Shown here one piece after another: positions 1-32,652 of a DNA stretch of 64,000 bases. The stretch covers positions 60,084 through 124,083 of the forward strand of contig PSRM01000068.1 of the NCBI GenBank assembly GCA_003176045.1. The letters are read 5' to 3'. The first letter of the stretch is position 1. Each line of letters opens with the position of its first letter. Under the pieces are notes generated by a model that was given only the letters and a program-made list of their open reading frames with translations, had not been told where the DNA came from and searched no databases. A program made the translations under genes and the position numbers. Source of the stretch: Verrucomicrobiota bacterium (lineage in GTDB: Bacteria; Verrucomicrobiota; Verrucomicrobiia; Limisphaerales; UBA8199).

Positions 1-1880
1 TGGACGAATTGCCGGGGATTGGTGGAGCTGGCGAGGAGGAATCCGAGGCGGACTTCGGGAATATCAATGCCTTCGTCGAGGCAGCGGATGGCGACGACGG
101 CGTCGAGGCTGCCGTCGCGGAGGGCGGCGAGGATGGCTTCACGATCCTCCGGCGGCTCTTCATAGGTGAATTTGCGGACGCGGAGGCCATGCTCCTCGCC
201 GAGCAGGCGCGACACGGCGCGAATTTGGCGCTCGTCCTCCTCGGTGACGGGCTGCTCTACCCGGCCGTCGCCGCAGTAAACGATAGCTTTGGTAGGCGGG
301 GTAGTTAAGGATTTAAGAACGGCAGAGAGGGCGGGAAGTTTGTTAGCCGCCGAAGCAAGGAGCCGAGCGCGTTTGATGAGAAGCCAAAGGAGCTGGTCGC
401 TCATCCCTTCGCCTTCGCTGGCGGGGAGGTGGCGGCAGAGCTGTAGAGTGAGATCATAGTACCGGTCGGACTCCTCGGCGGTCAGATCAACGAGGACCGG
501 GTAATAGAAATACGGGCAGAGAACGGGCGGGTTGGCTTTGATGGCATCGGCTATGGTGAATTCGTAAGCGATATCGCCGAAGTAATCGAAAATAGCCTTC
601 GTACCTTCCTCGTCCCAGCGGCGCTCGGGTGTAGCGGAAAGTCCGAGGCGGAGCTGGATAAAATCGGGGAGAGCGGTTTTGAGCTTCGCAGCGCCGAGAT
701 TGTGAACTTCATCGGCGACTAAAAGGTGGTGACCGAGCTTGGGCTGGAGCGCAGCCTGAAAAGCCGTCGAGAGAAAGGTGTCATTGGTGACGACCAGGCC
801 AATCACTTCGGTCATGCCAGCGGCCAAGCGCTGGTAGGCTTCCTGAAGGGGGAGTTCCCAGCGGGCGCGGCCCTCGAAGCAGGGAACGGCGGAAATGCCG
901 AAGCGGGCCATCTCGCGGCCCCATTGTTTAGCGAGGTTCAGGTAAGGAGCGACGACGAGGAGCACCAACGGACGGTTGCGTTCGGCCACTTTGCACGCGA
1001 GGTAGAGGGCGGTAATGGTTTTGCCGGTACCGGTGGCCATGGAGAGAATGCCGCGGCCGTTGCGTTTGAGCCATTCGCGGATAGCGTCTTTCTGGTATTC
1101 GCGAAGGGTGAGGTCTGGCGGAACGGTTCCGGGCTTAAGGTCTTTGGGCGGAATCCAGTATTGGACGTGCGCTTCATGGAGCTCGGGGGTATGGGGAAGC
1201 TGGTAACGTTGAAGGAGCTCTTTGGAGACGGCGGTGAAATCCAGCACGCGGAGACCGGGCGTACGGTCGGACCAGAGTAATTCGAAGTTGATAAGTTCCT
1301 CTTTGACGCGGCCCTGGAGATCGTCCCAGGACCAGAACACTTTGATGCTTTCGAAGTTGTCCACGAGGCCAGCGGCTGTTTCGTTGGCGGAGCCGGCGAA
1401 AGCGACGTTGTTGCCTTCGGCATCGGTGAAGATACCGATTTTCTCGTGGTAGATGCCGCGCGCAAGGCGCCCATTTTCATCGAGGCGGATGGCCAGGCGG
1501 ACTTCGAGAGAACCGTCGGCAATGAGCCAGGCGAGAGCATTGAGGCGCTCGCGCTCCAGGAGGTCTTCAATTTCGGAGAGGGAGCGGGCGACAATCTGGC
1601 GCAGAACAGTCGTTGGATTGTCCTTGGCCAGTTCAAGGGCCTGGATGTCGGCTTCTTCGAGGTGAGGTGAGGCGACCAGTTGCATTTTGCCATGGCGGGA
1701 AACGAGACTGGCGACGCCGCGGGCGGCGGACGCGAGGCTGGAGCTGGTAAAGTAACCGACCGCGCGGCGGTAGAGGGTGGCACACTCCATGCAGGGGATG
1801 TAGAAGTCTCTGAGGAGATCATCCCGACCGCTGCGGTAGCAGATTCGAAGGCGCTGGGCTAACGCTGGGAGACTTGGCAT
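1..1880 (-). CDS. PLD (HKD) nuclease domain fused to SF2 DEAD/DEAH (type III res-like) helicase; C-terminus cut by window edge
   Basis: Absent from the ORF track because there is no stop in the window. My hand translation of the minus strand from ATG 1880-1878 stays open to position 1 (MPSLPALAQRLRICYRSGRDDLL...). Motifs: HKD YHEKIGIFTD...GSANET, Walker A SMATGTGKT, DEVH box LLVADEVHNLG, motif III LSATPER, C-lobe CLDEGIDIPEV. Listed ORFs 9..308+, 726..1280+ and 938..1822- are shadow frames of this gene. Confidence 0.8.
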   Translation of the reverse strand, partial: MPSLPALAQRLRICYRSGRDDLLRDFYIPCMECATLYRRAVGYFTSSSLASAARGVASLVSRHGKMQLVASPHLEEADIQALELAKDNPTTVLRQIVARSLSEIEDLLERERLNALAWLIADGSLEVRLAIRLDENGRLARGIYHEKIGIFTDAEGNNVAFAGSANETAAGLVDNFESIKVFWSWDDLQGRVKEELINFELLWSDRTPGLRVLDFTAVSKELLQRYQLPHTPELHEAHVQYWIPPKDLKPGTVPPDLTLREYQKDAIREWLKRNGRGILSMATGTGKTITALYLACKVAERNRPLVLLVVAPYLNLAKQWGREMARFGISAVPCFEGRARWELPLQEAYQRLAAGMTEVIGLVVTNDTFLSTAFQAALQPKLGHHLLVADEVHNLGAAKLKTALPDFIQLRLGLSATPERRWDEEGTKAIFDYFGDIAYEFTIADAIKANPPVLCPYFYYPVLVDLTAEESDRYYDLTLQLCRHLPASEGEGMSDQLLWLLIKRARLLASAANKLPALSAVLKSLTTPPTKAIVYCGDGRVEQPVTEEDERQIRAVSRLLGEEHGLRVRKFTYEEPPEDREAILAALRDGSLDAVVAIRCLDEGIDIPEVRLGFLLASSTNPRQFV

Positions 1881-1902
1881 CTGGGAAGGTGGTTGATGGG
1901 GC

Positions 1903-2772
1903 CTAGAGGATCTGAGAAAGAGGCACGTAGAGGTTTCTGGTCAAACTTGCGTCGAGTGCGCCAACGTGAGTGCGTGCCGTTGACCACTTGTTCAGGTCGG
2001 CTTTCAGCGACAAGGTGTACGCGAGATGTCTTCCAGAGCGCAAAACGATGGGGAGATTCTTTGCTGCTTCCACAATCGCCGGGTTGAACTCCAGATTGGA
2101 CGCAAAGATGTAAACCAAGCCGATGCCGTCGGCCGCTTTGTCGATTCCTACAGCTTTCTGGTAATCGTGCCATTTGAGGCTATGTCTGAGGAGCAGGAAC
2201 TTGGTGTAATCACTGAACAGCGTCTCTTTCGAGACCTCGTTCTGAGCGGTCTTGGCCTGGACAAGGAAGCAAACGCCTTTGAAGGGACCCTTTTCGTGTA
2301 TGCCTATCAGATCCAGGCCAGCGTCGCCGCTCGTGTCGGTAATAAAAATGCGGGTGCATCCCAAGAGGAAGAGGTAGGTGGCACAGCAAAATAGAAACTC
2401 ACGCTCGTAGCAGCTTCGCACCCATTGCCAAACGTCGCAGTAATGTTGAGGCAATGTGGCACGTCCTGAAATTGTCCCGAACTTCGGGTGCTTCCAGGTG
2501 ACGATTGCTCCGTGTTGATCTGTGACGTGGAGCGGGCAGGGTATTCCAAGCGACTCCCACTCGCCGCAGACTATCAGGATCTTAGTCAGGATCAGATCGA
2601 TGTTCTTCTCAGCATACTCATCGGCAACCATGGCGACACAGCCCCTCGTTTTTAGGAAGCTGGCGAATTCAACACGGGCGTTGAGCCGTTCGGGCACATT
2701 GGCTCCTATGACCGAGTCCCAAATGTGACGGTACGAGAACTCGCTGACGTCGTTGCCGGAGGGTAAGGGCAT
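1903..2772 (-). CDS. Mrr-cat-like PD-(D/E)xK restriction-endonuclease-fold protein
   Basis: 289-aa ORF. The C-terminal half has the pattern GDAGLDLIGIH...FLVQAKT typical of Mrr-type nuclease cores. It starts 1 nt after the upstream stop and ends 22 nt before the helicase start. Confidence 0.55.
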   Translation of the reverse strand: MPLPSGNDVSEFSYRHIWDSVIGANVPERLNARVEFASFLKTRGCVAMVADEYAEKNIDLILTKILIVCGEWESLGIPCPLHVTDQHGAIVTWKHPKFGTISGRATLPQHYCDVWQWVRSCYEREFLFCCATYLFLLGCTRIFITDTSGDAGLDLIGIHEKGPFKGVCFLVQAKTAQNEVSKETLFSDYTKFLLLRHSLKWHDYQKAVGIDKAADGIGLVYIFASNLEFNPAIVEAAKNLPIVLRSGRHLAYTLSLKADLNKWSTARTHVGALDASLTRNLYVPLSQIL

Positions 2773-2773
2773 C

Positions 2774-3937
2774 TCAAATCTGATTTGGGTCGGAGGTTGC
2801 GGCTGTAGCCTTTTGAGCCCCTAGACCGGAGGCGACCGATTGGGCCTTTTTGCGAAGGTTCTCGATCTGGGCGATTAGGCCGGTGGTCGCGGAAAGGATC
2901 GCATTGGCATCGTTGTCGATTGCAGAATTGGGGATGTCGCCGAGCAGGTTGTTTATCTTCTTGAAAGTACTTTCCCAGTCGTATGGAGAGTAGTCGTCAG
3001 TGAGCTTCTGGTTTGCCGCTTCGATCGCGATCTCGTGTTTATCAATTTTGCTCAGGAGGCCTTCTTGCTTGCCTACGAGAAGACGGCCCAGCATGGCTAT
3101 GTGGCGCGGATCATGTATGCGGCGTTGGTTTTCGTGCTCCTCGTCTGGACAAATCCAGCCGTAAAACTGTTTCAAGTTGTCGTTGTTCTTAAAGCACTTA
3201 TTTTCGTCGTCCCACCCGAGCCAGCCCTTGACGTATTTGTCGCGGATGGCTTCTTCGAAGAGGCTATAAAACTTGTTTTCGGCTTTGCTCTGGAACTCTT
3301 CATCCTCACGCATTTGTTGAAGGGCCTTATAGCTTCGGTATCGTCGGCCCACAGCCTGGGCGGAGAGGCCAAATTGTTGTCCAGCTTCGGCCAATCCCAT
3401 GCCTTGCTTGTCAATTTGGTCTGCGATCAGCTTGCCTTGCTGGGCCGGCATCCAGTCTCGTATTCCTCCGATGTGACGGATGCCCTGCAGAATCCACGCG
3501 ATGTCTTTGGTGTCCGAGCCTTCGTAGACCAAAACATCGATGTTATCGGTGGCATTCTTGAGGGTTTGCAGGTACTCCTCGGTTATGTTCGTTTCCGCGA
3601 CGGTCCCGTCGTTGATTTGTTCTCTGAGCGTTTTGAGGGCGGCAAGACGCCGGTTGCCTTCAACGGCGACATACTTGCCAGGCAGCCCAGCAAGTTCACG
3701 AACTACGACGCGATCGAGTGGCAAGAAGCCATTGCGCAGGATGCTATTCTTGAGTTCCTCAATTCCGTGATTGGAGATTCGCGCGCGGGTCCTACTCTGG
3801 TGAGTTTCCTCTGGGACTTTGATGTCAGGAACGTCGGCGGTCTTTTGGGTTTGCTCGGACCAAAAGCGAGGATTGTTTGGGTCCAGGTAAACGCAGTCGA
3901 TTGAGACGGTCTTCTGCTTTAGTTGATCGTTGTACAT
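2774..3937 (-). CDS. ParB/Srx N-terminal-domain (ParB-like nuclease) protein
   Basis: 387-aa ORF with DPNNPRF and VAVEGNRRLAALKTL, the GxRR box of the ParB/sulfiredoxin fold. No DGQHR motif. The long C-terminal region is unassigned. Confidence 0.65.
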   Translation of the reverse strand: MYNDQLKQKTVSIDCVYLDPNNPRFWSEQTQKTADVPDIKVPEETHQSRTRARISNHGIEELKNSILRNGFLPLDRVVVRELAGLPGKYVAVEGNRRLAALKTLREQINDGTVAETNITEEYLQTLKNATDNIDVLVYEGSDTKDIAWILQGIRHIGGIRDWMPAQQGKLIADQIDKQGMGLAEAGQQFGLSAQAVGRRYRSYKALQQMREDEEFQSKAENKFYSLFEEAIRDKYVKGWLGWDDENKCFKNNDNLKQFYGWICPDEEHENQRRIHDPRHIAMLGRLLVGKQEGLLSKIDKHEIAIEAANQKLTDDYSPYDWESTFKKINNLLGDIPNSAIDNDANAILSATTGLIAQIENLRKKAQSVASGLGAQKATAATSDPNQI

Positions 3938-3974
3938 AAGCGGCTTCTATATTTTTGGTGGCTTGTATCCATAT

Positions 3975-4415
3975 TCAAATGTGGTCTTCGTGTATGTCCT
4001 CGGCCTTCTTGCAAAGCAGACACGCCAGTTCCAGATGGAGCCTTGCTGGCGTGCAAGCAGTCAATTCGTGGCTCAAGTATTTAAGGCCGACATCGGCGAA
4101 GCTTTCGACGAGGCGGCAGAGGCGATCTTCGTCGCGGGCGATGTCGGCGTTCCGCTCGGTGGCGAGGCCGATAAGGAGAAGGTTTGGAAATAGGCCCTGG
4201 TTTTTGAAAACGGCGAGGTCGATCGGATAAATATTCGAGAGGAATTCTTTCGTATCTTGCGGTTTTCGGCCATGGAGGCGGTCAAAGCCACAGGAGGCGG
4301 CAAACACCACCATATCGGCGTAGGTATCGAAGCAGGCATTTTCGGCTGGTTCGTCCGAACGCCGGCAGAAGGGTACCAGCGTTTCAGCGGAGGTGGCTAG
4401 GCGTATGGCGGGCAT
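3975..4415 (-). CDS. 146-aa hypothetical protein translationally coupled to the upstream ATPase
   Basis: Track ORF 3975..4628 trimmed to Met72. Its ATG (4415-4413) overlaps the ATPase TGA (4417-4415) as TGATG. The discarded N-terminal extension is an out-of-frame read of the ATPase. Sequence MPAIRLATSAETLVPFCRRSDEP...; possible resemblance to Dnd-associated small proteins is from memory only. Confidence 0.5.
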   Translation of the reverse strand: MPAIRLATSAETLVPFCRRSDEPAENACFDTYADMVVFAASCGFDRLHGRKPQDTKEFLSNIYPIDLAVFKNQGLFPNLLLIGLATERNADIARDEDRLCRLVESFADVGLKYLSHELTACTPARLHLELACLLCKKAEDIHEDHI

Positions 4416-6547
4416 CAGTTTAGGGGGATGATTTTTGTGTAAGGGCTCTGCTGCGCTCCAGGCAGTTCTTCGAGAAGCCGTACGCTTTTTGCCCCGACCT
4501 GGTAGGAGAAGTCCGAGAGTTTTGGGTCCTTTTCCCGCCACTCCAGGATTTTTTCGGGCAGGGTATGGTATTGGAAACCCAAGATCCGCGAAGCAGCGGG
4601 TTCGATAATTGGCTGGACGAGATTCCATTGCTGGCGGGCAAGCAGGAGAACGACCTGACGGGCATTGCCCTCAAGGAAATTGGCGATGGCATGTGCGTAG
4701 TGATCGGTGACCTGATTAAACGGCGAATCGAGAAAGAAGGACTGGTCGTCGAGCTTGCCAAAACCGATGCCGAGCTTTTGCATCTGGACGTGGAGGCTTT
4801 TGCGGAGGCGAGCGACCGAAACGATGTACGCGAGGGCAAGGAGCTGGGACTGGCCGCCGCCGAGGTTCCCACGAACCTGACCATTTGCTTCGATGGCGGG
4901 CAGGAGGGTGCCGCGGTTAATGTGGGCTTTGCTGCCGTCGGTAGCCGAGGTGTCGTAATATTCCGTCACGGACCCCTGAAGCATGTGATGGAAGGAGCGG
5001 TTTAATTGCTCGCGGGATTCCTGGATGAGCAAGCGGAGCTTCTCGGCGCGCGCGCGGGCCTTTTGGAGGATGCGCTCTTTTTGGGCCAAGGCGCCAGAGG
5101 GGCGCGCTCGTTCCATTTTCTCTTTAAGGTTTTTGAGGGTTTTCTGAGTCGCGGCGATGGAATCCTCAAGCTGGGTGATTTCGCCCTTGAGGGTTTCGCG
5201 GGAACGCGCGAGTTCGCGGAGCTTGGCAGTGAGCGTACGGATTTCCTCGATGGGCGAGGCTTGGAGTTTTTTCTCGAGGTCAGAGACGGAAGCGTCGAGC
5301 TTTTCGATTTCGGCTAAGGCGCGGGCGCGGGACTCCTGGGCAGCTTTGAGTTTTGTAGTGATGTCGGCGGTGAACTTGGTGTAGCTGTGGGAATTTGATT
5401 CCTGAACGGCGTTCAGGAGGTCACTGAGACCGCGGTTGAGGTCCACGCTGAGGGTTTTTTCCTTGTAGCGCTTCCACGCGAGACGGGTCTCGTCGTCGTG
5501 GGGGCGTCCGCAGACGCAAGCGGGCGAGGAGAGGATGCGGTTGACGAAGCGCTCGGAAACATCGGCAGGGATGATGTTGTCTTCCTGCATTTGGCGGAGG
5601 ATAGACGTGGCGACAGGGAGGGCCTGCAGGACGAACGGGACACCGCGGGAGCCGCCAACCAGCCGGGCGATGTCGCCATCGGCACGTTCACGGGCTTTCC
5701 TAGCGGATTCGAGTTTCGTTCGGAAATCGCGTATTTGGGAGACAAGCCGCTCGGCGTCGCCGCCGCTGCCCAACTCCTGGAGGCGGACCGTGACATCGTC
5801 GAAATTGCCAGTGGTCTCATCCAACTGCTTTTTCTTCGCGGCTAGTTTCTCCTGCTCTTTAAGCATGTGTTTACGAAAGAGTTCTTCATTATTTAGAAGC
5901 TCGCTGTATTCCTTGTTCTTTTCGGTGAGTCGGCCCAGGTCCTTTGTGTAGGAGTGGCGGACTGCTTCGGCGGCAGTTTCGGCGTCCTGCCAGCGGTCTT
6001 CGTGGAGGAAGGAGGCGAGGGACTCGCGAATGGCGGTGACCCCGCCGAGTAGTTTACCGTCGAGGGGTTCGCCTTTGAAGTAAAAGGCGTCGAAGAGCTG
6101 CTCGGGAACCAGGGTGCGGAGTTTGGTCTGATAGAGGCCATCGGCATCTACCACAAGGGAAAGTCTTGGGACACGGTAAACCCTGGTGAACTGGAGCTCC
6201 GGTGGCATCCACTGGTCCTGGCCGCGCTTGCGCGTCTTGACGGTGCGACGGAGGGTCAGGTCTTCGTCTTCAAGTTCGAGGGTAACTTCGACCCAGCCGG
6301 CCACTTCGTGGCCGACCGAGGCGGCACCGCGCCGGCCGTCGTGGATGAGACGATAGGCGGTGAGTTCGGTGCAGTCGGGGAGGTGGCCGTAGAAAAGGAA
6401 TTTTAGAGCGCGGATGATGTTGGTCTTGCCGCTGTTGTTGGGGGCGAGGATGACGACGAGGTTGTGATCTTTCTGGGTGGGCAGTTGGATGACCTGTTCA
6501 CCCGGGAAGACAAGGAAATCGCAGATGCGCAGCTCTTTTATTAGCAT
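4415..6547 (-). CDS. DndD-like SMC/ABC-type ATPase (Walker A, coiled coils, zinc-hook-like CxC, signature and Walker B)
   Basis: Track ORF 4415..6661 trimmed to MLIKELRICDF (ATG 6547). Motifs: Walker A APNNSGKTN, FYFKGEPLD, long coiled-coil segments, SSPACVCGRPHD, signature-like GGGQSQLLALAYI, Walker B SFFLDSPFNQVTDHY. The K/R-rich 38-aa extension was rejected. Confidence 0.75.
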   Translation of the reverse strand: MLIKELRICDFLVFPGEQVIQLPTQKDHNLVVILAPNNSGKTNIIRALKFLFYGHLPDCTELTAYRLIHDGRRGAASVGHEVAGWVEVTLELEDEDLTLRRTVKTRKRGQDQWMPPELQFTRVYRVPRLSLVVDADGLYQTKLRTLVPEQLFDAFYFKGEPLDGKLLGGVTAIRESLASFLHEDRWQDAETAAEAVRHSYTKDLGRLTEKNKEYSELLNNEELFRKHMLKEQEKLAAKKKQLDETTGNFDDVTVRLQELGSGGDAERLVSQIRDFRTKLESARKARERADGDIARLVGGSRGVPFVLQALPVATSILRQMQEDNIIPADVSERFVNRILSSPACVCGRPHDDETRLAWKRYKEKTLSVDLNRGLSDLLNAVQESNSHSYTKFTADITTKLKAAQESRARALAEIEKLDASVSDLEKKLQASPIEEIRTLTAKLRELARSRETLKGEITQLEDSIAATQKTLKNLKEKMERARPSGALAQKERILQKARARAEKLRLLIQESREQLNRSFHHMLQGSVTEYYDTSATDGSKAHINRGTLLPAIEANGQVRGNLGGGQSQLLALAYIVSVARLRKSLHVQMQKLGIGFGKLDDQSFFLDSPFNQVTDHYAHAIANFLEGNARQVVLLLARQQWNLVQPIIEPAASRILGFQYHTLPEKILEWREKDPKLSDFSYQVGAKSVRLLEELPGAQQSPYTKIIPLN

Positions 6548-6554
6548 GGCGACG

Positions 6555-6767
6555 TTATTGGCTGAGGGAATCCTCGATGGCCTGTTTGAGGCTGTCTTCT
6601 TTTTCCGTTTCCGATCTGGCATCAGCGCCGGGAGAAACATAGAGGTTGAGGGCCTTTGCAAACAGGGATTGCATGGCTTCGTCCTGCAGGTCGAGGAGGT
6701 CGAGAAGCGAGGTAATTTCGATCTCGGCGTGGCGGGATTTAAGAGCTTTTGATGAGGACGCGCTCAT
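6555..6767 (-). CDS. 70-aa acidic hypothetical protein
   Basis: ORF starts 5 nt after the AIPR stop and ends 7 nt before the ATPase start. It is acidic and helical-looking (EIEITSLLDLLDLQDEAMQSLF). No recognisable motif. Confidence 0.45.
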   Translation of the reverse strand: MSASSSKALKSRHAEIEITSLLDLLDLQDEAMQSLFAKALNLYVSPGADARSETEKEDSLKQAIEDSLSQ

Positions 6768-6772
6768 TGGGT

Positions 6773-8632
6773 TCAGATCATCGTTCGATCCCTTTCCTCC
6801 AGTCGCTCGTCGAAGTTGCGAACGAACTCGAAAACATCCACGTTGTCTTTGAGGTAGAGAGATTTCTGAGCTTTTTCGAAGGCGGCATTTAGGCTCTCTG
6901 TCTTCGTATCCTCAAGGCACATAAACCGTTCCTGTATTTGGCTCTTGATCCGGGAGTGATAATTATCGAGTTGCTTGGCGATTTCGTCTCTGAGCGCGCG
7001 GTCCCTTCCCACGATAGAGGTGCCGTAATCTTCCAGCGGACCGAATACTTCATTCTTGGCCAGATACCTACACAGCAGGCAGAGCGCGTAATAGAGGACC
7101 TTGCCTGCTTTTACATAGCTTGTACTCCAGTCGAGGCCGAGGTCGTTTTTCAGGACTACGCCGAGAACGTTGTGCAGGTTTTGGAGGAAGACGAGGAAGT
7201 GCACCGACACGGTTCGCGTTTGGGAAAAGCAGCGGTTGTACGCTGCATCGCTTTCGAATAGATCGTTGGTGTTCCGGGCGAAAGTGATATCCCCAGCCGC
7301 GGCAGCAAGGCATCGTGCGAGGTCTTCGATATTGACTGGACCCCACGTTGAATTCAGGAACGCGCGGCCAAGCCTTTTCGGGTCGCTTTCCTCGACATAT
7401 TCAAACGCCCCCTCCTGGCGCTCATAGAAAACCTCTATGTCTGAAAAACGTTGCTCAAGTGCAATCTGGGTTGGGTCGTTTGCCCGCAACGCAGCGGCGG
7501 TAATCGCATTTTGTCGGTTGTTGTTGACTGTGACGGTTCGGATGAGCTCCTCGTCGCGGCTGTTGATTACACGCACCGGGATTGTGATGCGGTCCCAGAG
7601 GGCGTCGTCCATTTTAGGGGTGGAGTTGGAGGGGCAACGGAAGCGGTAAGCGGTGATAATGGTCTGACACCCGTTCAGCACATATGGGTCGCGGAAGGAA
7701 AGGAGCCCCGAGGAGAGCACGACGTCGCGCGCGTGTATGGTCACGCCATTGTGATATAGGGCGAACGTTTCCGGGTCTACGATTGGTGGCTTGTCAACGC
7801 AGATAGCTCGCAGCGTCCTTTTGATTCGGGCGGATGGCCCCTTCTCCACGTTTCTGCCAGACGTAATGAACAGCCTAACGTTTTTGGAAAAAAGGTCTTC
7901 TTTGCGGGTAGCAAACATGGCGACAAGGTCGGCGAGGCGTCCAATCCCGATGAACATGTTCGTTTGGGTACTTTGTGCGACAGGGAGGGACGTACCCTGG
8001 AACCTTATAGTTTTAGCCGGGGACGGCTGAAGGTCGGGAGGAGGGAGGTGCTCGATATACCTTGGGCCTTCGAGGCGAAGCTTGAACACCGCGTCCGGCA
8101 GGACGTCCCGGCAATCCTCTTTGAAGACATCTTGCGTCTCTCTTGTTTTGTTGTTGAGCAGGGCATCATCTTCTTCGTTGAGGTGCACGACAACAAATTC
8201 GAGCTTGAGCTTAGGTCGTTCTTCGGGAGGCAGGTTGGCCAGGTCGGCACGAAGATTGACGAGGAGCTTGCTGTCCGTGGCGGGAGACGCCTCGGAGGAA
8301 CCCAAGGCGGATTTAAGCCAAACAAGTGATTTTTTAAAATCCCTGGCTCCCTGGGCGATGAGCTTCACGCTATCGGAGTACTTGGTTTGAATCAGAACAA
8401 GGGTGGGCGGTTTGCCATCGTCACGGAGGAGGTGAAATGCGTCGAGACCGTGATCAAGACCGGACCCGTCGGGGCCTTGTTTGCTTTCCGCGGAGCAGCG
8501 TATCGCTTCTGTGGCAGAGACGCCGTAGGTCTTTGTCAGATACCACGGCGCGAAGCATTCTTCGATGCCATCACCATGTGCGTAGCACTCTTTGAAATCT
8601 TTTACTTGTTCGCGAATATCTGCGGCGGGCAT
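6773..8632 (-). CDS. AIPR-family abortive-infection protein
   Basis: 619-aa ORF. N-terminal nuclease-like GLDAFHLL...LVLIQTKYS. C-terminal ALYHNGVTI and VLNGCQTI resemble the AIPR (Abi-like) core as I remember it. Confidence 0.7.
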   Translation of the reverse strand: MPAADIREQVKDFKECYAHGDGIEECFAPWYLTKTYGVSATEAIRCSAESKQGPDGSGLDHGLDAFHLLRDDGKPPTLVLIQTKYSDSVKLIAQGARDFKKSLVWLKSALGSSEASPATDSKLLVNLRADLANLPPEERPKLKLEFVVVHLNEEDDALLNNKTRETQDVFKEDCRDVLPDAVFKLRLEGPRYIEHLPPPDLQPSPAKTIRFQGTSLPVAQSTQTNMFIGIGRLADLVAMFATRKEDLFSKNVRLFITSGRNVEKGPSARIKRTLRAICVDKPPIVDPETFALYHNGVTIHARDVVLSSGLLSFRDPYVLNGCQTIITAYRFRCPSNSTPKMDDALWDRITIPVRVINSRDEELIRTVTVNNNRQNAITAAALRANDPTQIALEQRFSDIEVFYERQEGAFEYVEESDPKRLGRAFLNSTWGPVNIEDLARCLAAAAGDITFARNTNDLFESDAAYNRCFSQTRTVSVHFLVFLQNLHNVLGVVLKNDLGLDWSTSYVKAGKVLYYALCLLCRYLAKNEVFGPLEDYGTSIVGRDRALRDEIAKQLDNYHSRIKSQIQERFMCLEDTKTESLNAAFEKAQKSLYLKDNVDVFEFVRNFDERLEERDRTMI

Positions 8633-8669: not shown

Positions 8670-9056
8670 TTAAGCTTTTTTGGGGTTTGGGGACCTCTTG
8701 ATGATGAGCCACTCGTTGGGTTTTCCGTGTTTGAAACGAACGAGGTTGAAGCGGCCGGAAGCAAGGGCGCCGTGGAGGTTGAAAACGATTACGTTATCGT
8801 TCCATTCCTCGGAGTCGTAGGTGCCTTTGTCCCAGATGCGCACTTTGCCGGCGCCGTATTGGCCTTCGGGCAGGGTGCCCTCGAAATCGCCGTACGCGAG
8901 GTCGTGGTCCTCGACCTGGACGGCGAGGCGCTTTATTCCGGGTTTTTCGGGAATTCCTTTAGGTACAGCCCAGCTTTTGAACACGCCTTCCTTTTCCAAG
9001 CGGAAATCGAAGTGGTGCGTGCGGGCATCATGCTCCTGAACCACGAACTTTGGCAT
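8670..9056 (-). CDS. Stand-alone LigD-type 3'-phosphoesterase (PE) domain protein
   Basis: 128 aa. MPKFVVQEHDARTHHFDFRLEKEGVFKSWAVPKG matches the LigD PE domain signature. Confidence 0.85.
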   Translation of the reverse strand: MPKFVVQEHDARTHHFDFRLEKEGVFKSWAVPKGIPEKPGIKRLAVQVEDHDLAYGDFEGTLPEGQYGAGKVRIWDKGTYDSEEWNDNVIVFNLHGALASGRFNLVRFKHGKPNEWLIIKRSPNPKKA

Positions 9057-9194
9057 ACCAAGATTCTTCTTGCTCGCAGCCGAGGCTCCGAGCGAGCCCC
9101 GCCGCCGGGGAATGTTCTATTCCGATTGCCGGAATGTTGCAATTCAATTACACGCCAGTCGCACAACAAATGTTCCGGGGCCGCAGTGCTCCGC

Positions 9195-9326
9195 GCGCAA
9201 TTCATAAACGCAGAATCTTGGCGGCGGGAGGAGGGTCAAGGTGGAGGCGCCTCGAACCGCTTTGCCCGCTCCGCGCACTACCTTGACGCCCGCACCGCCG
9301 CCATAAAATCTCCTGCGGAATTGCGC
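9195..9326 (+). repeat. 132-nt structured imperfect palindrome, copy A (candidate ncRNA or ssDNA hairpin)
   Basis: Hand-folded helices: 9195-9203/9318-9326, 9209-9213/9313-9317, 9220-9227/9295-9302, 9233-9244/9278-9291, 9247-9250/9273-9276. A second copy at 47304-47435 carries compensatory substitutions. Confidence 0.65.
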
Positions 9327-9360: not shown

Positions 9361-9996
9361 CTACATCCGGTACTTTGCAGTTCGAGGGCTGATCGTTTGC
9401 GGTTTAGGTTCAATTCCAATGGCTCGAAGCAGGTTTATCGCCTCTGCTCGCTGTTCCGCAGAGGGTTGTTCAGCGGAAAGGAATTGCGCGAATCGGCCCT
9501 TCATGGAGTCAAACTCAAGCGCTTGGTTTGCGCCGAACCTCTCGAATTCGCCAGATTTCGCACGGATAATTGGCAGGACCACACCTTTTTGCGCGCCCCG
9601 CTCTTCCCCGATGACGAGCACAATTTCCTGACGGTCAGGTGATTCCGAGGGAGGCTTCATCGGATCGAGCGGCTCACCGGGTTTAGGAAGAACTGCCCAC
9701 GCTTCAGACGCCATCACGACAAGCCGAGCATCATGTCCGATGCAAAACAGACGAGCTACATCTGCAAAGAAATTCTTGTCGGGAAGATTCGTCAGCCTTT
9801 CTGGTGAGAGAACATGCGAGCCATCGGCCCCGATAATGAAGAGGGTTGGTGGCAAGGACCCGGACATTCTCATGCAAAAGCCAGCGTAAAATTCAGCGTG
9901 TTCGACGAGGTCGGCCAACGTTCGCACCTGGCCTGCCGTTGGCAGGAGTGCAGCCGGATCATTTCCTCCTAAATTGTTCGGCTTCGGTGAGGTCAT
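9361..9996 (-). CDS. hypothetical protein (211 aa)
   Basis: Clean ORF co-directional with the T4SS block. No motif recognised. Confidence 0.5.
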   Translation of the reverse strand: MTSPKPNNLGGNDPAALLPTAGQVRTLADLVEHAEFYAGFCMRMSGSLPPTLFIIGADGSHVLSPERLTNLPDKNFFADVARLFCIGHDARLVVMASEAWAVLPKPGEPLDPMKPPSESPDRQEIVLVIGEERGAQKGVVLPIIRAKSGEFERFGANQALEFDSMKGRFAQFLSAEQPSAEQRAEAINLLRAIGIEPKPQTISPRTAKYRM

Positions 9997-17950: not shown

Positions 17951-20564
17951 GTTTTGGTTGGGCTGTTTGAGTTGATGCTGGAAGTTCATGGGGCAGGCGC
18001 ACGTATCGGACGGTGCCGCAGATGGGCTGGCGAGCGTCTGTGTGGTAATACAAGAATTCGGAATACTTGGCCCCTATTTGCTGGTCTGGTCGCGGAAAGC
18101 GCAGAATGGCTTCGCGAGCAACACTGGACAAACCCAAGTCTTCCGCGAGTCGTTCGACATCGCGGCGATCTCCGGTATTAAAGATGAACCAAGCTCGGGT
18201 ATTCCCGACCAAGGCTGTGCGAATCGGCGTGTCCGCAATCCGCGAGTATTGTTGAGCGACGATCAGGACCTGGCAGTTGAACTTGCGAAACTGCTCGTAA
18301 AGTTCTCGAAGGATGGCCTCGCCGCCTGGAATATCTATGAAACGCGAGACTTCTTCCACTATCACCCGCTTTTTTAAATGCCGCGGCATGTTCAGGATGT
18401 GGTTGCGGATGCCGTTGATTATCAAAAAACCCACTACCGTTTTAATTTCCTTCGCGGCTTCGGGGATGAATCCGAGTTCAAAATGGACTACAGGGCCGTT
18501 CAGTGAAACATTCGTTGCGCCATCAAACATGACACCGTAACTGCCGCCTCTGCACCATGGAGCGAGCAACGTAGCCAGCCATCGGCACTCCTCCTCATCC
18601 TGGTCCGCCAGCTCGAAGTATTCGCAGAGGGAAGACAAGGTGAGATGTTCCTCCGGCCGCAAAATAGCGAATACCATGTTGCGGACACTTTGCGGATCGC
18701 TTGATTCGAATTCGTCCAGGTCCGCTTGAGGAAGTTGCTTTAGGAGAGCGTTGCCCTCAACAGGGCGCGTCTGCTGGATTTCGTTAAAGCAACCGAAAGC
18801 TTCCAACTCCGAAATGCCTTGGCTTTTGGACAGACGCTTCACTGTTAGCGCAAGGCGAAGAAGTGCATTTCGCTGCTCCAAACTCAATTTCCGCATGTGC
18901 TCATCAGCATGGTCATTGGACAGTCGAGTGAGGTGGCGCGAGATGAGGGCTGAATGGCGACGTGCTTTGTCTTCGTCTGCGGGAAGCCCGATCATCCGAG
19001 CGACGACGGCAATTTGAGTTGCCGCGGCAAAGGAAGATCGCGGCAATTTCTGAGTATCCAAGGGATTGAGCGTTTGGTTTCCATCCACTCGGAAGACCAC
19101 AGGATTTACTCCGTGGCTGCGTGAATAGGGGACTTGCGACAGACCTTCCTCCACTATTGCCGTGAAAGCAAAATGAGGATCGGTTTCAAGCTCCAACTTG
19201 GTGAGCGCAAGGCTTTTGCCGACACCCGGTGCGCCCAAAGCCGTAAGGTTTTGAGGTGTGGATGCATCACCTTCGCCAAGAAACATAGCGGCGTTGACTA
19301 AATTGTTGTCGTTGCCGGGGAACAGTGCCTGAACGGGGCCGGGATGGCCTACAAAGCTGCTACACAGCGGCATGAGGTCCGCCGCAGTCCGGTCTTCGCA
19401 ATAGATTCGGAATCCCTGGTAGCGACTGCCTGTCCAGCCAGGCAGTGTTTTGGTGAACAAATGGCGGGACGTGCTGGGTAACGAGGCTTCATAATACTGG
19501 GCTCCGTTCATGGCCTGAAGCGTCGCCTTGATCGCAGCGGCTTTGTCGCCCAGTTCTTCCTCGGTTTTCGCTCGGACCAAAAGGATAATCTCTAATTCCA
19601 GAGGAACAGCCTCGCCTTCAGCAAGCCGCCGGATTTTTTCTTGCATCTGTCGAACGGTTACGGCCTGACGCTCATCAGGCTTGCGCAAGAGTTGCTGGTT
19701 GAGGCGATCCAGCGAGGATTGAGTCCTCTTCACGATGTCGGCCTTGGCCAGACGGCGGACATGAACTGTGAAGACGAAGTCGCTGAAGGGGAGATAAGTG
19801 AGGCGATGAACGATCGTAGGGAACGTTTCGGTTGGCAGCCGTCTTACAGTAATGGCCAGACAGTGATAGCCGTCCAAAACAAATCCGTGACGCCCCAGCC
19901 CCCGTAACTCAGAATTCCAAAAATTATCCAACAGGGATCGGGTCCTGTCGAATGTCGCGACAGGCTCATAATTGGGCTGGCGAGTGAGCGAAGGATTCAG
20001 GGCATCCGCCCAAAGTCGAACATTCTCAGATTCGGTCAGAGGAGTCACCCGTCCACCGATTGGCGCCAAAGCCTGGACAAGCGACTGTTCGAAATCGCTG
20101 AAAGCGCTTTTTACTTCCGTGAGCAACTGATCATAACGATGCTGGTTGCCTTTTGCTTTGGCCGATGGCCTGCTGTGTGTTTTCTGGTGGTAGGAAGCAT
20201 AGAGAATTACACGCTTTCTCAATAACTTTCCCGATTCCCGTGAGTTCCACTGTTGGATGAGGTTTGCATTCCGCAACGTTCGCGCGGTGGGGTTTTGGCA
20301 CGCCTCGGTGCTACGCTGATAGTCCAGGAGGATGCCAGTATCGACCGGAGCTTGAAACTGAATCAGTTGAAGGTTCATTCCCTCCGGAATTTGCCTCAGC
20401 ATCATCGAAATCGCGTCCTGGACCTGGTTGCATTCAGAATAAGAAGCCGATTGCAAATTGGGTGTATCGATTTCGAAACCCATCGAGATCACCCCCCTGC
20501 TCGGTCCGCCGAAGACGATAAGATTGTCCACGACAAACCCGTCCGGAAGTAGGTCAGCACTCAT
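17943..20564 (-). CDS. virB4: VirB4/TrbE-family T4SS ATPase
   Basis: 873 aa with Walker A LGAPGVGKS. The size and operon position are typical of VirB4. Confidence 0.9.
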   Translation of the reverse strand: MSADLLPDGFVVDNLIVFGGPSRGVISMGFEIDTPNLQSASYSECNQVQDAISMMLRQIPEGMNLQLIQFQAPVDTGILLDYQRSTEACQNPTARTLRNANLIQQWNSRESGKLLRKRVILYASYHQKTHSRPSAKAKGNQHRYDQLLTEVKSAFSDFEQSLVQALAPIGGRVTPLTESENVRLWADALNPSLTRQPNYEPVATFDRTRSLLDNFWNSELRGLGRHGFVLDGYHCLAITVRRLPTETFPTIVHRLTYLPFSDFVFTVHVRRLAKADIVKRTQSSLDRLNQQLLRKPDERQAVTVRQMQEKIRRLAEGEAVPLELEIILLVRAKTEEELGDKAAAIKATLQAMNGAQYYEASLPSTSRHLFTKTLPGWTGSRYQGFRIYCEDRTAADLMPLCSSFVGHPGPVQALFPGNDNNLVNAAMFLGEGDASTPQNLTALGAPGVGKSLALTKLELETDPHFAFTAIVEEGLSQVPYSRSHGVNPVVFRVDGNQTLNPLDTQKLPRSSFAAATQIAVVARMIGLPADEDKARRHSALISRHLTRLSNDHADEHMRKLSLEQRNALLRLALTVKRLSKSQGISELEAFGCFNEIQQTRPVEGNALLKQLPQADLDEFESSDPQSVRNMVFAILRPEEHLTLSSLCEYFELADQDEEECRWLATLLAPWCRGGSYGVMFDGATNVSLNGPVVHFELGFIPEAAKEIKTVVGFLIINGIRNHILNMPRHLKKRVIVEEVSRFIDIPGGEAILRELYEQFRKFNCQVLIVAQQYSRIADTPIRTALVGNTRAWFIFNTGDRRDVERLAEDLGLSSVAREAILRFPRPDQQIGAKYSEFLYYHTDARQPICGTVRYVRLPHELPASTQTAQPKHA

Positions 20565-20889
20565 AAAATGGATGGCTTAACGGCTTCCTTGGTGGTTTCG
20601 CGTGGCCTCTCGTGACCAAAGAATCCAGGAGGTCGGATAAATAGCCTGGTGGCCTGCCTTGATGGAAAAACCGCAGGTACAGGAAGCAACCGAGCACTGG
20701 AACCAGTGCCCACTGCATGGCTTCCAAGAACCCCAATGCGAGACCGTAAAAAAGGCCAGCAAAGAGGCTGAGCGCGACGAGCAACGCGAGGGCAAACCAT
20801 TTGAAATTAATAACCTCGATGCCCCAGAGTGAGCCTTCGTACTGCTCTGCGCTTAGTGTGCGCGTGACGCGCAGCTTCTGGTCGGACAT
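20554..20889 (-). CDS. VirB3/TrbD-like small membrane protein
   Basis: 111 aa with two TM segments, immediately upstream of VirB4 and overlapping it. Confidence 0.55.
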   Translation of the reverse strand: MSDQKLRVTRTLSAEQYEGSLWGIEVINFKWFALALLVALSLFAGLFYGLALGFLEAMQWALVPVLGCFLYLRFFHQGRPPGYLSDLLDSLVTRGHAKPPRKPLSHPFYEC

Positions 20890-20898
20890 AACCCGAGA

Positions 20899-21219
20899 TC
20901 AAAACGTGATGCCGACATTCTGGGCCAGATACGTGATCAAGGGCACCGCAATCGCGATAATGAAGCCGCCAATGATGCACAAGACACCTTCGATTGTGTG
21001 GCCTTGCCGTGCGATCAAGTAGCCCCCGTAAGCAATGACTGCTACGCCTATCAACAGGCAAAATTTTGCCAGCAGTAGCTTGAACGAATCAATGGCCGCA
21101 TTGGGGTCGGCCTGGGCGAGGAGAACCGACGTAGTCAAAACCGGAGCCGCTTTTGCTGGATGCAATGCGGTGTCAACGGACGCGAAGAACAAGAACAGGA
21201 TGAGAATGAATTTATGCAT
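20899..21219 (-). CDS. VirB2/TrbC-like pilin precursor
   Basis: 106 aa with a long signal peptide and two hydrophobic helices. It is the first gene of the T4SS block. Confidence 0.6.
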   Translation of the reverse strand: MHKFILILFLFFASVDTALHPAKAAPVLTTSVLLAQADPNAAIDSFKLLLAKFCLLIGVAVIAYGGYLIARQGHTIEGVLCIIGGFIIAIAVPLITYLAQNVGITF

Positions 21220-21332
21220 CGTTTTGTCTTTCTATATTTTCAAGTTTCTATTTGTGACTGAGCGAACCGAATCACTTCGACTTTGTATCCGCCAAGGGAG
21301 GGGCGTTTGGTTGCACAAGGTCCTAAAGAAAG

Positions 21333-21359
21333 CGGCGGGGCGTTCTTGGCACCCCGCCG
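21333..21359 (-). terminator. GC-rich hairpin downstream of the sigma-factor gene
   Basis: CGGCGGGGCG / CACCCCGCCG stem (8 bp, a mismatch, then 1 bp) with a 7-nt loop. On the minus strand it is followed by CTTTCTTTAGG. It lies 16 nt after the stop at 21375. Confidence 0.45.
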
Positions 21360-21374
21360 GTTAGCGTGTTTTTG

Positions 21375-22004
21375 TTAGTCGCGGACGCGACGTATTACAA
21401 CGGGTCTATCTTCTTCCTCCGCCAGCAGCCACTCTCGCATCTTTTCTCGACCCCGGCTGAGATGAGATTTTATCGTGTTCTCCGGTATGCCAAGGATCTC
21501 ACTAATTTCGAACACTTTGAGCCCGCCCCAGTAAAACAGGTTTATAGCATCGCGCTCAGGCTCACTCAGACTGGTCAGAGCATCACCCAACCCGCCACTT
21601 CGACCCGACCCAACTTCGAACGATTCACGCGATGACTGCCGGTGCTCGGTTAGTGCGAGAACGCCTTCATTGTGCCGCATTTGCTGGCGATATGCGCCAG
21701 AGCAACGGGAGTACAGCCTGAGTTTGAAGCGGCCTCGAAAATCTCCGTCTTTTGGCACAGGCTCCCTCAAAAGGCTCAAGAGAACGTCATGGAAGAGGCT
21801 TTCAGGGTCAGATGCTCCCTTATGAAAGCCAATCGCAAGCGCATAGCACTGCATGTTGGCGTAGTTCGTCGAGATGAACTCGGACCAAGATGGTTTTGAA
21901 CCAAAGCAATTTAGTCCAGCGTTGCGGTTAGATGAGTATTGATGATGTTGGCCTCTCGTTTCGGCTGAGGCCGTAGCCGTTGTCTTTCGATTTTTCACGG
22001 GCAA
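21375..22004 (-). CDS. ECF-type sigma-70 family RNA polymerase sigma factor
   Basis: Region 2-like FHDVLLSLLRE and region 4 LSEPERDAINLFYWGGLKVFEISEILGIPENTIKSHLSRGREKM. The start is a non-ATG codon (TTG or GTG), so it is uncertain. Confidence 0.75.
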   Translation of the reverse strand: MPVKNRKTTATASAETRGQHHQYSSNRNAGLNCFGSKPSWSEFISTNYANMQCYALAIGFHKGASDPESLFHDVLLSLLREPVPKDGDFRGRFKLRLYSRCSGAYRQQMRHNEGVLALTEHRQSSRESFEVGSGRSGGLGDALTSLSEPERDAINLFYWGGLKVFEISEILGIPENTIKSHLSRGREKMREWLLAEEEDRPVVIRRVRD

Positions 22005-22065: not shown

Positions 22066-23175
22066 GTGGCCACAACAGGTGGCCTGAATTCGTCCTCATG
22101 GTCCTCTATGGGCCAGATGGGGGCGAATGGGCTATTTGGGGAGAAATGGGAGGATTTACGATTCGCGGAAAGGCACCAATTTTGGATTGTAAATAATCAC
22201 CTCACACCGTGTACTCCTTCCGTGATCACTGCCGGCCACATGTTTGTGATGGAAATCTTCCGAGTTGCGAATTCTCGCTTCGGAGCCAATACCCTTAATC
22301 TTGCGGGAGTTGATGCGACGAGTTGGCGAGATTGGTGCGAAAACGTGTCGAGTATTTCACCATATTCCGCCCACAAGACCGCGACAATCATTTGGAAGCA
22401 GATGCATGAGCCAGGCCGGCAACGTGTACGGCGCGATCTACTTGCAATGATTCGCCATCTGGTTCCGACCGCTCCAAAGAAGTGGGATGCCGAAAACTTT
22501 CCTGCCTTCTTTCATAGATTGGCTTCCGAAACGCAGACAATTGGTCCTCTGAGGGCAAATTTTTGGGCGGAGGCGATTCATTCAGGCCGCAGATTCACGC
22601 TTCGCCCAGAAGAAGAACTTCGGGAAGGCACCGTCGATTCGGGAGGACTCATACGCCTCCACATCGAGCTAACTCGGCCAGCTTACCCCCTAATTCTTTG
22701 GATCACAGGCAATGGCAAAATACAGCCAATTTACCCGTGGCGGCGTTTCGATTGGAAAGGCGCGCTTAGGCACGAGAAAGTGGTCGCTCTGTGTCTTCCC
22801 GAAGCAGAGGACGAGGGATTCCCTCTCGAATCGTCGAACGGATTGGAAACGGCGATCCTCTTAGCGAGCGTTGAGGAAATTGGGCCTTATCTGATTGACG
22901 ACCTTCCAAACAGACTCCCTCCAAGTTTTCCTAACCCGAAAACCACCGGTCCCGTTTTGGACTCAGCAAAATCTCCGGTGGTTCCTTTTCGATTCACAAA
23001 GGACGCTGATTTAGGTGGCGCGTTGCACCGCACAAGATTGGGAGATCCGGTAAAAATCTCAGATCAAATACAACATCGGCATGACGAAATCGGGTCGAGA
23101 CTTGCTGGTTGTTTCGATCTGGTACAAGGATTTAGCTTTTTTGTCCGGAACCCAGAAACCGTAGCGAAAGAATGA
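22066..23175 (+). CDS. 369-aa hypothetical protein, possible DUF4384-like beta-sandwich in the central part
   Basis: GTG start, uncertain. The segment GGLIRLHIELTRPAYPLILWITGNGKIQPIYPW...ETAILLAS resembles the DUF4384 pattern that often accompanies caspase/CHAT proteins (from memory). Its stop overlaps the CHAT start (ATGA). Confidence 0.5.
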   Translation: MATTGGLNSSSWSSMGQMGANGLFGEKWEDLRFAERHQFWIVNNHLTPCTPSVITAGHMFVMEIFRVANSRFGANTLNLAGVDATSWRDWCENVSSISPYSAHKTATIIWKQMHEPGRQRVRRDLLAMIRHLVPTAPKKWDAENFPAFFHRLASETQTIGPLRANFWAEAIHSGRRFTLRPEEELREGTVDSGGLIRLHIELTRPAYPLILWITGNGKIQPIYPWRRFDWKGALRHEKVVALCLPEAEDEGFPLESSNGLETAILLASVEEIGPYLIDDLPNRLPPSFPNPKTTGPVLDSAKSPVVPFRFTKDADLGGALHRTRLGDPVKISDQIQHRHDEIGSRLAGCFDLVQGFSFFVRNPETVAKE

Positions 23176-32246: not shown

Positions 32247-32627
32247 ATGCTTCGCGGCCATTCAGATTCCCCGAAGCTGGCGGAGACTCCCCCGCCGTAC
32301 GGAATCAAGTCCGAATTAAATTTCCCAGGAATCGATCAAGCGTTCTCAACGGACGAGCGGCCGATTGGAATTACCTTCTATCGCTCCAAAGAAAGTTTTT
32401 TCCTGCCCTATCATTTGCTGCAAACCGCCCGATTCAAAGACAACCGGATCACGCTTGTGTTCGCCGTGGCTGAGGTCGTTATTTCCGGTCGGGGACTGCA
32501 CCTGCTTTATGCTCAGATTACGGCGCAACTGGTGAGCCGGGTCGTGGAACAGGGAGAGCGATACTCGGCCGTTTCGGACCTTCTCGTCCACATTCGGGCG
32601 ATAGAAGAAATTCCGAGGGAAAAATAA
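32247..32627 (+). CDS. hypothetical protein (126 aa)
   Basis: ORF starts 12 nt after the relaxase stop. No motif recognised. Confidence 0.45.
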   Translation: MLRGHSDSPKLAETPPPYGIKSELNFPGIDQAFSTDERPIGITFYRSKESFFLPYHLLQTARFKDNRITLVFAVAEVVISGRGLHLLYAQITAQLVSRVVEQGERYSAVSDLLVHIRAIEEIPREK

Positions 32628-32647: not shown

Positions 32648-32652
32648 GAATT

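Follow-up and report, generated by a model that had tools for sequence, protein, structure and literature searches.

Two copies of a long hairpin in a conjugative element

The subject of this report is a non-coding hairpin of about 130 nucleotides (nt), which occurs twice in a 64,000-nt stretch of DNA, hereafter the window, from a Verrucomicrobiota bacterium (contig PSRM01000068.1 of assembly GCA_003176045.1, positions 60,084 to 124,083). The window is a conjugative plasmid or an integrative conjugative element (ICE). Genes for TrbI-, VirB4-, VirB3- and VirB2-like components of a type IV secretion system (T4SS) lie on the minus strand at 10–21 kb, and genes for an AAA_2 ATPase, a coupling protein and a TrwC relaxase follow on the plus strand at 27–32 kb. 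ArdC, ParB, ParA, RadC, DUF932, two DUF6166 genes and a 1719-aa SNF2 helicase are also encoded, and no tRNA gene was found in the window.

The two copies of the hairpin, A at 9195–9326 (132 nt) and B at 47304–47435, are both on the plus strand and form the same rod, as a first-pass annotation of the sequence had described. They are 87% identical across 136 columns of a pairwise alignment with one indel, and a repeat finder returned the pair as the longest direct repeats of the window (61 nt at 89% and 50 nt at 86%). Each copy folds into one long imperfect hairpin, with −67.1 kcal/mol (z = −5.9) for A and −67.7 kcal/mol (z = −5.7) for B, and none of 200 shuffled sequences reached the stability of either. 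The minus strands form stable folds too (z = −5.1 and −4.5, respectively). Copies A and B scored 164 and 137 bits with covariance model R1, and 119 and 111 bits with the broader model R2.

The base of the rod, P1, is formed in copy A by GCGCAATTC (9195–9203) and GAATTGCGC (9318–9326), and one T is missing from its 3′ arm in copy B. A bulge of the 5′ arm, ATAAA at 9204–9208, separates P1 from P1b (9209–9213 with 9313–9317), which is CGCAG/CTGCG in A and GGCGA/TCGCC in B and thus has three covarying pairs. Above P1b, the loop AATCT (9214–9218) faces the −10-like box described below and is not conserved across the family. P2 pairs TGGCGGCGG (9219–9227) with 9295–9303, is supported by covariation, and has a top pair that is G-C in A and C-G in B. 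P3 pairs GTCAAGGTGG (9235–9244) with 9278–9287 and includes a G-T wobble at 9243/9279. The variable tip (9245–9277), including P4 with GCGC/GCGC (9247–9250 with 9273–9276), is unrelated in sequence between A and B. All these helices, together with the swapped pair, the wobble and the unrelated tips, agree with the earlier hand folding.

The similarity between the copies continues for about 14 nt to the left of the rod, reaching 9181 and 47290. In copy A this flank is CCGCAGTGCTCCGC (9181–9194), and the family motif ..ACTCC stands directly outside the stem. The motif is conserved at the equivalent places in the relatives, and its complement, GGAGT, resembles a ribosome-binding site. In subfamily 2 of the relatives the flank is GGAGTCTGCATG, followed merely by a 6-codon open reading frame (ORF).

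Relatives of the hairpin and covariation of its stems

More than 70 relatives were found, mainly in metagenomes and in Verrucomicrobiota genome bins. A metagenome scan with a pattern describing the P3 stem alone returned 65 loci, and a looser scan of genomes added Verrucomicrobiota and Lentisphaerae bins. The pattern used initially for genomes was too loose, and most of its 120 loci were chance matches. The scan loci and the window copies gave 57 distinct sequences. When the full-length copies were folded singly with DNA parameters, nearly all of them formed the same rod, with a tip of 15–45 nt.

A covariance model built from the two window copies, a check that the first-pass annotation had proposed, aligned 48 distinct copies. 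In this alignment, which leans towards the structure it was fitted to and in which P3 was fixed by the search pattern, 85.5% of the pairing cells were complementary against 72.4% in shuffles, double-sided changes were present in 26 of the 40 pairs, and the covariation score was 0.250, compared with 0.081 for shuffles and at most 0.077 when the partners were slid. P1 showed compensatory changes in 8 of its 9 pairs. At least eight unrelated yet complementary sequences occupy this outer stem in the family, among them GCGCAATTC, CGCGATGAAA, CCGAGCGTG, GAGCGTGCCT, GCGTGAAG and GGTTATTTACCCC, each with its complement. RNAalifold on a plain MAFFT alignment recovered P3 alone, because the outer stems were misaligned there, and that alignment was replaced by those from covariance models. 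The proposal that selection acts on a folded single strand rather than on coding is borne out by the covariation. The plus strand folded better than the minus strand in 46 of the 48 copies.

No match to Rfam was obtained for the window at the gathering thresholds, in keeping with the earlier failure to recognise an RNA family; in E-value mode the best matches were sub-threshold microRNA hairpins of 17–18 bits, against thresholds of 47–168. Copy A had no blastn match among 72,556 plasmids, and none was obtained with blastn against phage collections or with a pattern scan of a viral contig collection. The hairpin family is previously undescribed, while promoters that act in single-stranded DNA (ssDNA) are themselves known from plasmids of Escherichia coli.

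On one short contig, L157, with matches at 537–579, 1275–1339 and 1595–1721 (minus strand), a copy truncated right after TTGAC lies 738 bp from a full copy. A weak third match is found there on the opposite strand, and duplicated AAA_2 gene fragments adjoin, an arrangement that suggests local rearrangement at the hairpins.

A promoter-like signature on one arm of the rod

The 3′ arm of copy A carries a −35-like hexamer, TTGACG (9283–9288), paired within P3, and 15 nt after it a −10-like hexamer, TAAAAT (9304–9309), unpaired in an internal loop. The same hexamers occur in copy B at 47392–47397 and, again in the internal loop, at 47413–47418. Among the 57 distinct copies, 49 have TTGAC(G/A)-N13-16-TAnAAT on this arm, with a spacer of 15 nt in 31 and of 14 nt in 16 (47/49). 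The hexamer is TACAAT in 19 copies, TATAAT in 19, TAAAAT in 7 and TAGAAT in 2. Its third position varies freely, as does that of sigma-70 −10 boxes. TAnAAT was not part of the search pattern, and its A122, A125 and T126 are the sole invariant columns outside the pattern-forced P3 in an alignment of 51 sequences. Two unpaired blocks had been called invariant in the first-pass annotation; AATCTT proved to be so among close relatives only, and CATAnAAT is conserved throughout the family.

The mean probability of being paired was 0.98 for TTGAC in the family, and that of being unpaired was 0.78 for the −10 hexamer; the helix stops directly before this hexamer. Judged by established promoter biochemistry, such a fold would resemble a fork-junction or open promoter. 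The signature is also confined to one strand. At the place of the −10 box the plus strand has five or six of six matches to TATAAT in 48 of the 57 copies, whereas the opposite strand contains TTGACC and never has more than three. The plus strand is preferred as the folded strand, because the −35/−10 pair exists only there and because this strand folds better in nearly all copies. Between RNA and ssDNA, which the first-pass annotation had left as alternatives, the evidence favours ssDNA.

On the plus strand of the window the −35/−10 pattern matched at these two sites only. A standard promoter scan did not call either copy because of the short spacer. A terminator scan of the window gave no site at copy A or B, so that an identity as intrinsic terminator was rejected, and no run of T follows the hairpin on either strand of either copy; a canonical terminator is present elsewhere in the window, at 32621–32654.

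In the bulge of the 5′ arm, which would serve as template arm, most relatives have CCTAA(A/G) in place of the ATAAA of copy A, and alignment columns C20, T22 and A23 are nearly invariant in the family. The bulge is the proposed start-site region.

Genes around the hairpin

To the left of copy A, the LigD_N phosphoesterase gene (8670–9056, minus strand; Pfam E = 2e-38) starts 138 nt from the base of the hairpin. It is the first gene that any leftward transcript from copy A would meet, and the AIPR gene is on the minus strand as well; expression of LigD_N may be linked to the hairpin. To the right, a 211-aa minus-strand gene (9361–9996) ends 34 nt from copy A. Database gene calls on a Logan contig agree with these genes on both sides. 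Copy B is preceded by a plus-strand ORF of 196 aa (46618–47208; codon score +0.17 per codon, without a Pfam match), which ends 95 nt to its left and would converge on a leftward transcript, and a minus-strand DUF6166 gene (47438–47914; Pfam E = 7e-28) ends 2 nt to its right.

The genes around the relatives were assigned with tblastn and Pfam. Naive longest-ORF maps had given mixed strand totals and spurious antisense ORFs, and a model of the codon usage of the window told sense from antisense with little power. The relatives adjoin homologues of VirB4, TrbI or relaxases. The T4SS genes are opposite to the strand of the hairpin in all four element types, and both window copies share one orientation. 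A minus-strand gene starts directly to the left in four contexts: window copy A, L125 (a homologue of the window SNF2 helicase, 64% identical), L184 (a DUF6088/AbiEi-like protein) and subfamily 1 (a MORN-repeat protein). On the right, a minus-strand gene ends 2–35 nt from the hairpin in the window, and the same holds for L184, L122/L136/L167, L125, L065 and L032. No copy was seen in a divergent promoter region. The copies of subfamily 2 are flanked by genes for AbiEii and a serine recombinase, both on the plus strand.

Two small plasmids carry the hairpin in a different setting. Locus L176 (metagenome contig FUFK010433569.1) consists of four exact tandem copies of a 2574-bp unit with 44% G+C, probably a small circular plasmid of the rolling-circle type that came out of the assembly as a concatemer. 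Besides its single hairpin copy, the unit has genes for a Rep_1 rolling-circle initiator and an RHH-like protein, together with two small ORFs, and every one of these is on the strand of the hairpin. A TTCTTAT downstream of rep resembles the start of the pC194-type nick region. The L176 Rep resembles those of small Psychrobacter and Acinetobacter plasmids, and model R2 was run on six plasmids of this type, which had not been selected by the pattern. It matched pA13P1 of a cultured Psychrobacter with 41 bits (E = 9e-10; fold z = −6.2), at a position and on a strand as in L176. In both plasmids the hairpin lies between genes and shares its strand with rep and every other gene. The displaced strand of rolling-circle plasmids is normally the sense strand, where a single-strand origin (sso) must lie, and the hairpin has this orientation in both.

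A proposed entry site for RNA polymerase in single-stranded DNA

We consider the hairpin probably, though by no means securely, to be a site of the Frpo, ssi or sso kind that is active only in ssDNA, as a single-strand origin or promoter. The plus strand would become single-stranded during conjugative transfer, or through displacement in rolling-circle replication, and would then fold into the rod. P3 would offer a duplex −35 box, TTGACG. The duplex stops at about −13, and the non-template arm would present TAnAAT unpaired, mimicking a fork-junction or open promoter. An RNA polymerase of the sigma-70 type may dock there and transcribe to the base of the hairpin and then leftward, with the 5′ arm and afterwards the plus strand as template; this direction follows because the arm that bears the boxes is the non-template strand in the folded plus strand. 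The RNA would prime synthesis of the complementary strand, and may also serve as an early mRNA where a minus-strand gene follows, as at copy A (LigD_N and AIPR), L125, L184 and subfamily 1. In duplex DNA the leftward promoter would vanish, because the complement of the 5′ arm has no −10 box.

The stable one-strand stem-loop places both boxes on one arm, as is expected of an ssDNA promoter, and the surroundings of the hairpin on conjugative and rolling-circle elements are throughout of a kind in which ssDNA plays a part. The transferred strand of F is the template for the tra genes, and T4SS genes opposite to the hairpin are as expected if this arrangement applies. The orientation of the T4SS genes fits the expectation for a transferred strand in 4/4 element types, that of the relaxase in 2/4, and a suitable downstream gene is present in about half of the contexts. 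A role as mRNA cannot be general, because the left neighbour is a plus-strand gene in the other half; priming of the complementary strand fits every context, because it needs no downstream gene.

Several observations weigh against a site of this kind. The strand of the relaxase is inconsistent, being that of the hairpin in the window and L161 and the opposite one in L065 and L134, and the coupling protein, which shares the strand of the hairpin in the window, is encoded opposite to it in L163. Plus-strand left neighbours are found at window copy B, L128/L150, L161, L032 and subfamily 2. Neither the transferred strand nor oriT was found, and the nic patterns of R388 and F were absent or at chance level; the gap between the relaxase and ArdC genes contained a small ORF and a terminator, and the region upstream of the L161 relaxase had nothing in common with the window. 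The spacer of 14–15 nt is shorter than the canonical 16–18 nt. With RNA parameters the minus strand of copy A is slightly more stable than the plus strand. The tolerance of G-T pairs, from which the first-pass annotation had argued for the plus strand, is a weak argument, since outside P3 the G-T cells (44) are not above the A-C cells (51). The boxes of L176 and pA13P1 (N16, TATGAT) could be an ordinary duplex promoter of the downstream operon. Finally, the P3 core also occurs in Clostridia, in chromosomal palindromes embedded in terminators and without a clear −10 box.

The convergent genes on the right raise the question of an RNA hairpin at the 3′ end of the right-hand minus-strand gene, similar to a terminator or a REP sequence and bidirectional where genes converge. 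The closeness of these gene ends, the absence from divergent promoter regions, the position of Clostridial relatives inside canonical bidirectional terminators and the stable folding of the minus strand are all in its favour. It is nevertheless unlikely: neither strand has a run of T, in a window with a canonical terminator of its own, and the looped, invariant TAnAAT at a fixed distance from TTGAC on one strand would be left unexplained. Minus-strand RNA would have an A-C mismatch in place of the conserved G-T of P3 (a position at which C was admitted in the looser genome scan), and the plus strand is the better folder in 46/48 copies. If the boxes are instead read rightward on the plus strand, they might be an ordinary duplex promoter within an operator or cruciform palindrome. 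TTGACG or TTGATG with N16 and TATGAT stands about 70–110 nt upstream of the operon in L176 and pA13P1, and the serine recombinase gene of subfamily 2 lies 760 nt rightward. Against this, the gene on the right converges on the hairpin from the other strand, both in the window and in most relatives. A duplex promoter needs neither a covarying 5′ arm nor an outer stem 40–60 nt away, a tip of 15–45 nt does not suit a dimeric operator, and 47/49 copies have the short spacer, so that we regard such a promoter as quite improbable.

The varied surroundings also recall a small mobile palindromic repeat of the MITE, REP or Correia type, or a folded recombination site, on which promoter-like boxes would be incidental. 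Its position differs between related backbones, being on one side of the MORN gene in L032 and on the other in L143/L148, and before different genes in the window and L125; L157 has two copies at a distance of 738 bp, one of them truncated; one Clostridia bin has at least five related cores in housekeeping intergenic regions, and Correia elements are MITEs that carry promoters. The first-pass annotation had named a MITE or REP identity as what would overturn its view. Such repeats have many near-identical copies, constant terminal inverted repeats and target-site duplications, which the hairpin does not fit. There are only two copies in 64 kb and single matches in Verrucomicrobiota bins, the copies are diverged rather than near-identical, and neither A nor B is flanked by a visible target-site duplication. 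The terminal inverted repeat would have to be the outer stem, and compensatory change has made that stem wholly different between subfamilies, so that a transposase would find no constant end. Integron attC sites have R″/R′ core sites (RYYYAAC/GTTRRRY) at the hairpin base and are arrayed between cassettes; here the base is GCGCAATTC/GAATTGCGC without such core sites, the copies are 38 kb apart, and no integron integrase is among the annotated genes, and an attC identity was rejected. We give the mobile repeat and the recombination site little credence. A structured non-coding RNA from the plus strand, acting in trans or in cis, is very unlikely. It would account for the covarying rod with G-U pairs allowed on that strand, and in several contexts a plus-strand gene ends just upstream, so that the hairpin could be its 3′ untranslated region. 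On the other hand, Rfam gave no match, no conserved promoter upstream or terminator downstream accompanies the hairpin, the conserved unpaired block is a −10 hexamer, atypical as an RNA motif, and half of the contexts have their upstream gene on the opposite strand.

Comparison with known single-strand promoters and origins

By folding, the single-strand promoter Frpo restores a −35 and a −10 box, and the RNA made from it acts as a primer of DNA synthesis (PMC7690428, PMC9849209); priming in vivo has been reported (bioRxiv 10.64898/2026.01.09.698686). F has two Frpo copies with 92% identity (PMC9849209), and its leading genes are transcribed from the transferred strand (PMC9849209, PMC7690428). 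The hairpin described here would resemble this class of site (Frpo/ssi class 1, of F and ColIb-P9) in having a hairpin, formed only in a single strand, that rebuilds a duplex −35 beside a −10 box, with the folded strand as template and an RNA that can be both mRNA and primer. Like Frpo, it is present as two diverged copies in one orientation on one conjugative element (PMC9849209, PMC7690428). The duplex form is reported to be silent for Frpo and is predicted to be silent here, and DUF932, ParB-like and anti-restriction genes are found in both neighbourhoods. There are also differences. Membership in this class by sequence was rejected, there being no similarity by blastn against the plasmids and no match of model R2 in the F leading region (L186). 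F Frpo2 is about 330 nt long with −119 kcal/mol, against about 130 nt here, and the −35/−10 pattern did not match it. In the present family the −10 box is fully unpaired, the spacer is 14–15 nt, half of the copies have no gene to drive, and the elements are of Verrucomicrobiota type rather than from enterobacteria.

In pESBL and F, 5′ RACE has confirmed classes of ssDNA promoter that are unrelated in sequence (PMC12672017), and candidates have been widely predicted from hairpins with promoter boxes (PMC11541004). Those of classes 2 and 3 (pESBL, F; PMC12672017) are, like the present family, sequence-unrelated hairpins with rebuilt boxes, found by homology-free mining of hairpins, and they show that this kind of site holds many independent families. 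They were validated by 5′ RACE and by RNA sequencing in early conjugation, whereas the family here rests on covariation and motif conservation.

Single-strand origins (ssoA, ssoU, ssoT, ssoW, and sso1 of ICEBs1, an example of an ICE with an sso; PMC4595007) are likewise non-coding and orientation-specific. In both cases a folded region of the displaced or transferred strand would recruit RNA polymerase for priming of the second strand. The present family occurs on the sense strand of two Rep_1 rolling-circle plasmids, and in L065 it closely follows the 3′ end of the relaxase gene, a place comparable to that of sso1 behind nicK. It has no similarity to the described sso types, and its transcription would leave the hairpin at the base instead of heading for the terminal loop. 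Type ssoA has the conserved motifs RSB and CS-6 (TAGCGT). A search for TAGCGT in the tips of copies A and B found none, which does not fit that type. The minus-strand origin of M13/f1 is an ssDNA hairpin region with −35- and −10-like elements, at which the sigma-70 holoenzyme makes a short primer. The present hairpin would share these features, and differs in that the M13/f1 origin has two adjacent hairpins and is borne by a phage, while no phage collection gave a match here.

Core hairpins in Clostridia

Relatives of the core were also detected with model R2 in Clostridia; their E-values are inflated, because the loci had been pre-selected by the pattern. In bin CAAEBC01, at least five copies of the core are embedded in canonical bidirectional terminators that separate housekeeping genes, as behind mnmG (L113, 4566–4677; L069, 3427–3537; L053, 4478–4585; partial in L003 and L006). 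These are near-perfect palindromes of 110–130 nt with a common core, GTCAAGGTGGAG...ACTACCTTGAC, about 70 nt of inner sequence, and outer stems of 20–27 bp that are perfectly paired and unrelated between copies. With its order of A-tract, stem and T-tract, the outer stem in L069 resembles an intrinsic terminator that works in both directions. The impression in this bin is of a small palindromic module inserted into terminator loops. Three loci of Eubacteriales/Clostridia bins, L068 (980–1106, minus strand), L081 (416–545, plus strand) and L035 (94–218, minus strand), have only the core hairpin and tip, with TGaTATAAT, an extended −10 box, 12 nt after TTGACA; in L068 and L081 this box points into the 3′ end of an IS481-like transposase gene. 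As possible kin of the Verrucomicrobiota family, the Clostridia loci keep the idea of a mobile palindrome alive.

The core hairpin occurs in Verrucomicrobiota conjugative elements, Moraxellaceae rolling-circle plasmids and Clostridia chromosomal palindromes. One speculative and unlikely explanation is that the core, GTCAAGGTGGAG-loop-ACTACCTTGAC with its conserved G-T pair, is an ancient module that spreads horizontally and is read in single-stranded form by RNA polymerase or another conserved factor. If so, it would be a minimal single-strand origin or promoter across phyla, and its fork-junction design (duplex −35, pre-melted −10, spacer of 14–15 nt) would differ mechanistically from Frpo.

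Other features of the window

Two further rods were mined from the window, at 39766–39915 and 50596–50745, and neither has a −35/−10 pair. The latter is a rod-like hairpin of about 120 nt (CTCGCTAGAGGCACCGCGAA...TTCGCGGTTTTCTAGCGAG) between two minus-strand genes. The former belongs to a cluster of inverted repeats at 39300–39915, is the most stable 150-nt fold of the window given its G+C (z = −5.5), and overlaps the start codon of a 210-aa gene at 39829. The cluster is a candidate oriT, oriV or regulatory region. Another stretch checked as an oriT candidate, 20564–21375, proved to hold the VirB3- and VirB2-like ORFs.

Three 21-nt direct repeats (GCTCCATTCACCTTTTTTGAC), 25 and 29 nt apart, lie at 37083–37157 inside a 623-aa ORF without a Pfam match upstream of parA/parB, and could be iteron-like or a repeat within the protein. 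A 20-nt repeat, GTCGGGGACTGCACCTGCTT, occurs with 95% identity at 25990–26009 in the CHAT gene and at 32488–32507 in a small ORF downstream of the relaxase gene.

Defence-like cargo flanks the transfer genes (1900–8632 and 22066–26870) and includes an Mrr-like nuclease, an SMC/AAA_23 ATPase, AIPR and a standalone LigD 3′-phosphoesterase domain. Within these regions, a 1232-aa TPR-CHAT protease adjoins a DUF4384 protein and an ECF-type sigma factor. The G+C content drops from about 0.54–0.55 to 0.48 beyond 58 kb, where the genes encode radical-SAM enzymes, a TauD-like dioxygenase and a class II tRNA-synthetase-like protein; the change at about 57600–58000 may be the boundary of the conjugative element or a cargo island.

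Implications

Promoters and origins in ssDNA set how fast an incoming plasmid turns double-stranded and expresses its protective genes. Such sites have been tested almost only in plasmids of enterobacteria and Firmicutes, and the predictions made elsewhere consist of a hairpin with promoter boxes. To these the present family adds evidence of an evolutionary kind, namely covariation and a −10 signature that the search had not asked for. It points to such a device in environmental conjugative elements of Verrucomicrobiota type and in Moraxellaceae rolling-circle plasmids. With a size of about 130 nt the hairpin is small enough for synthesis and a direct test, and it may be a marker of the strand that becomes single-stranded in poorly known mobile elements.

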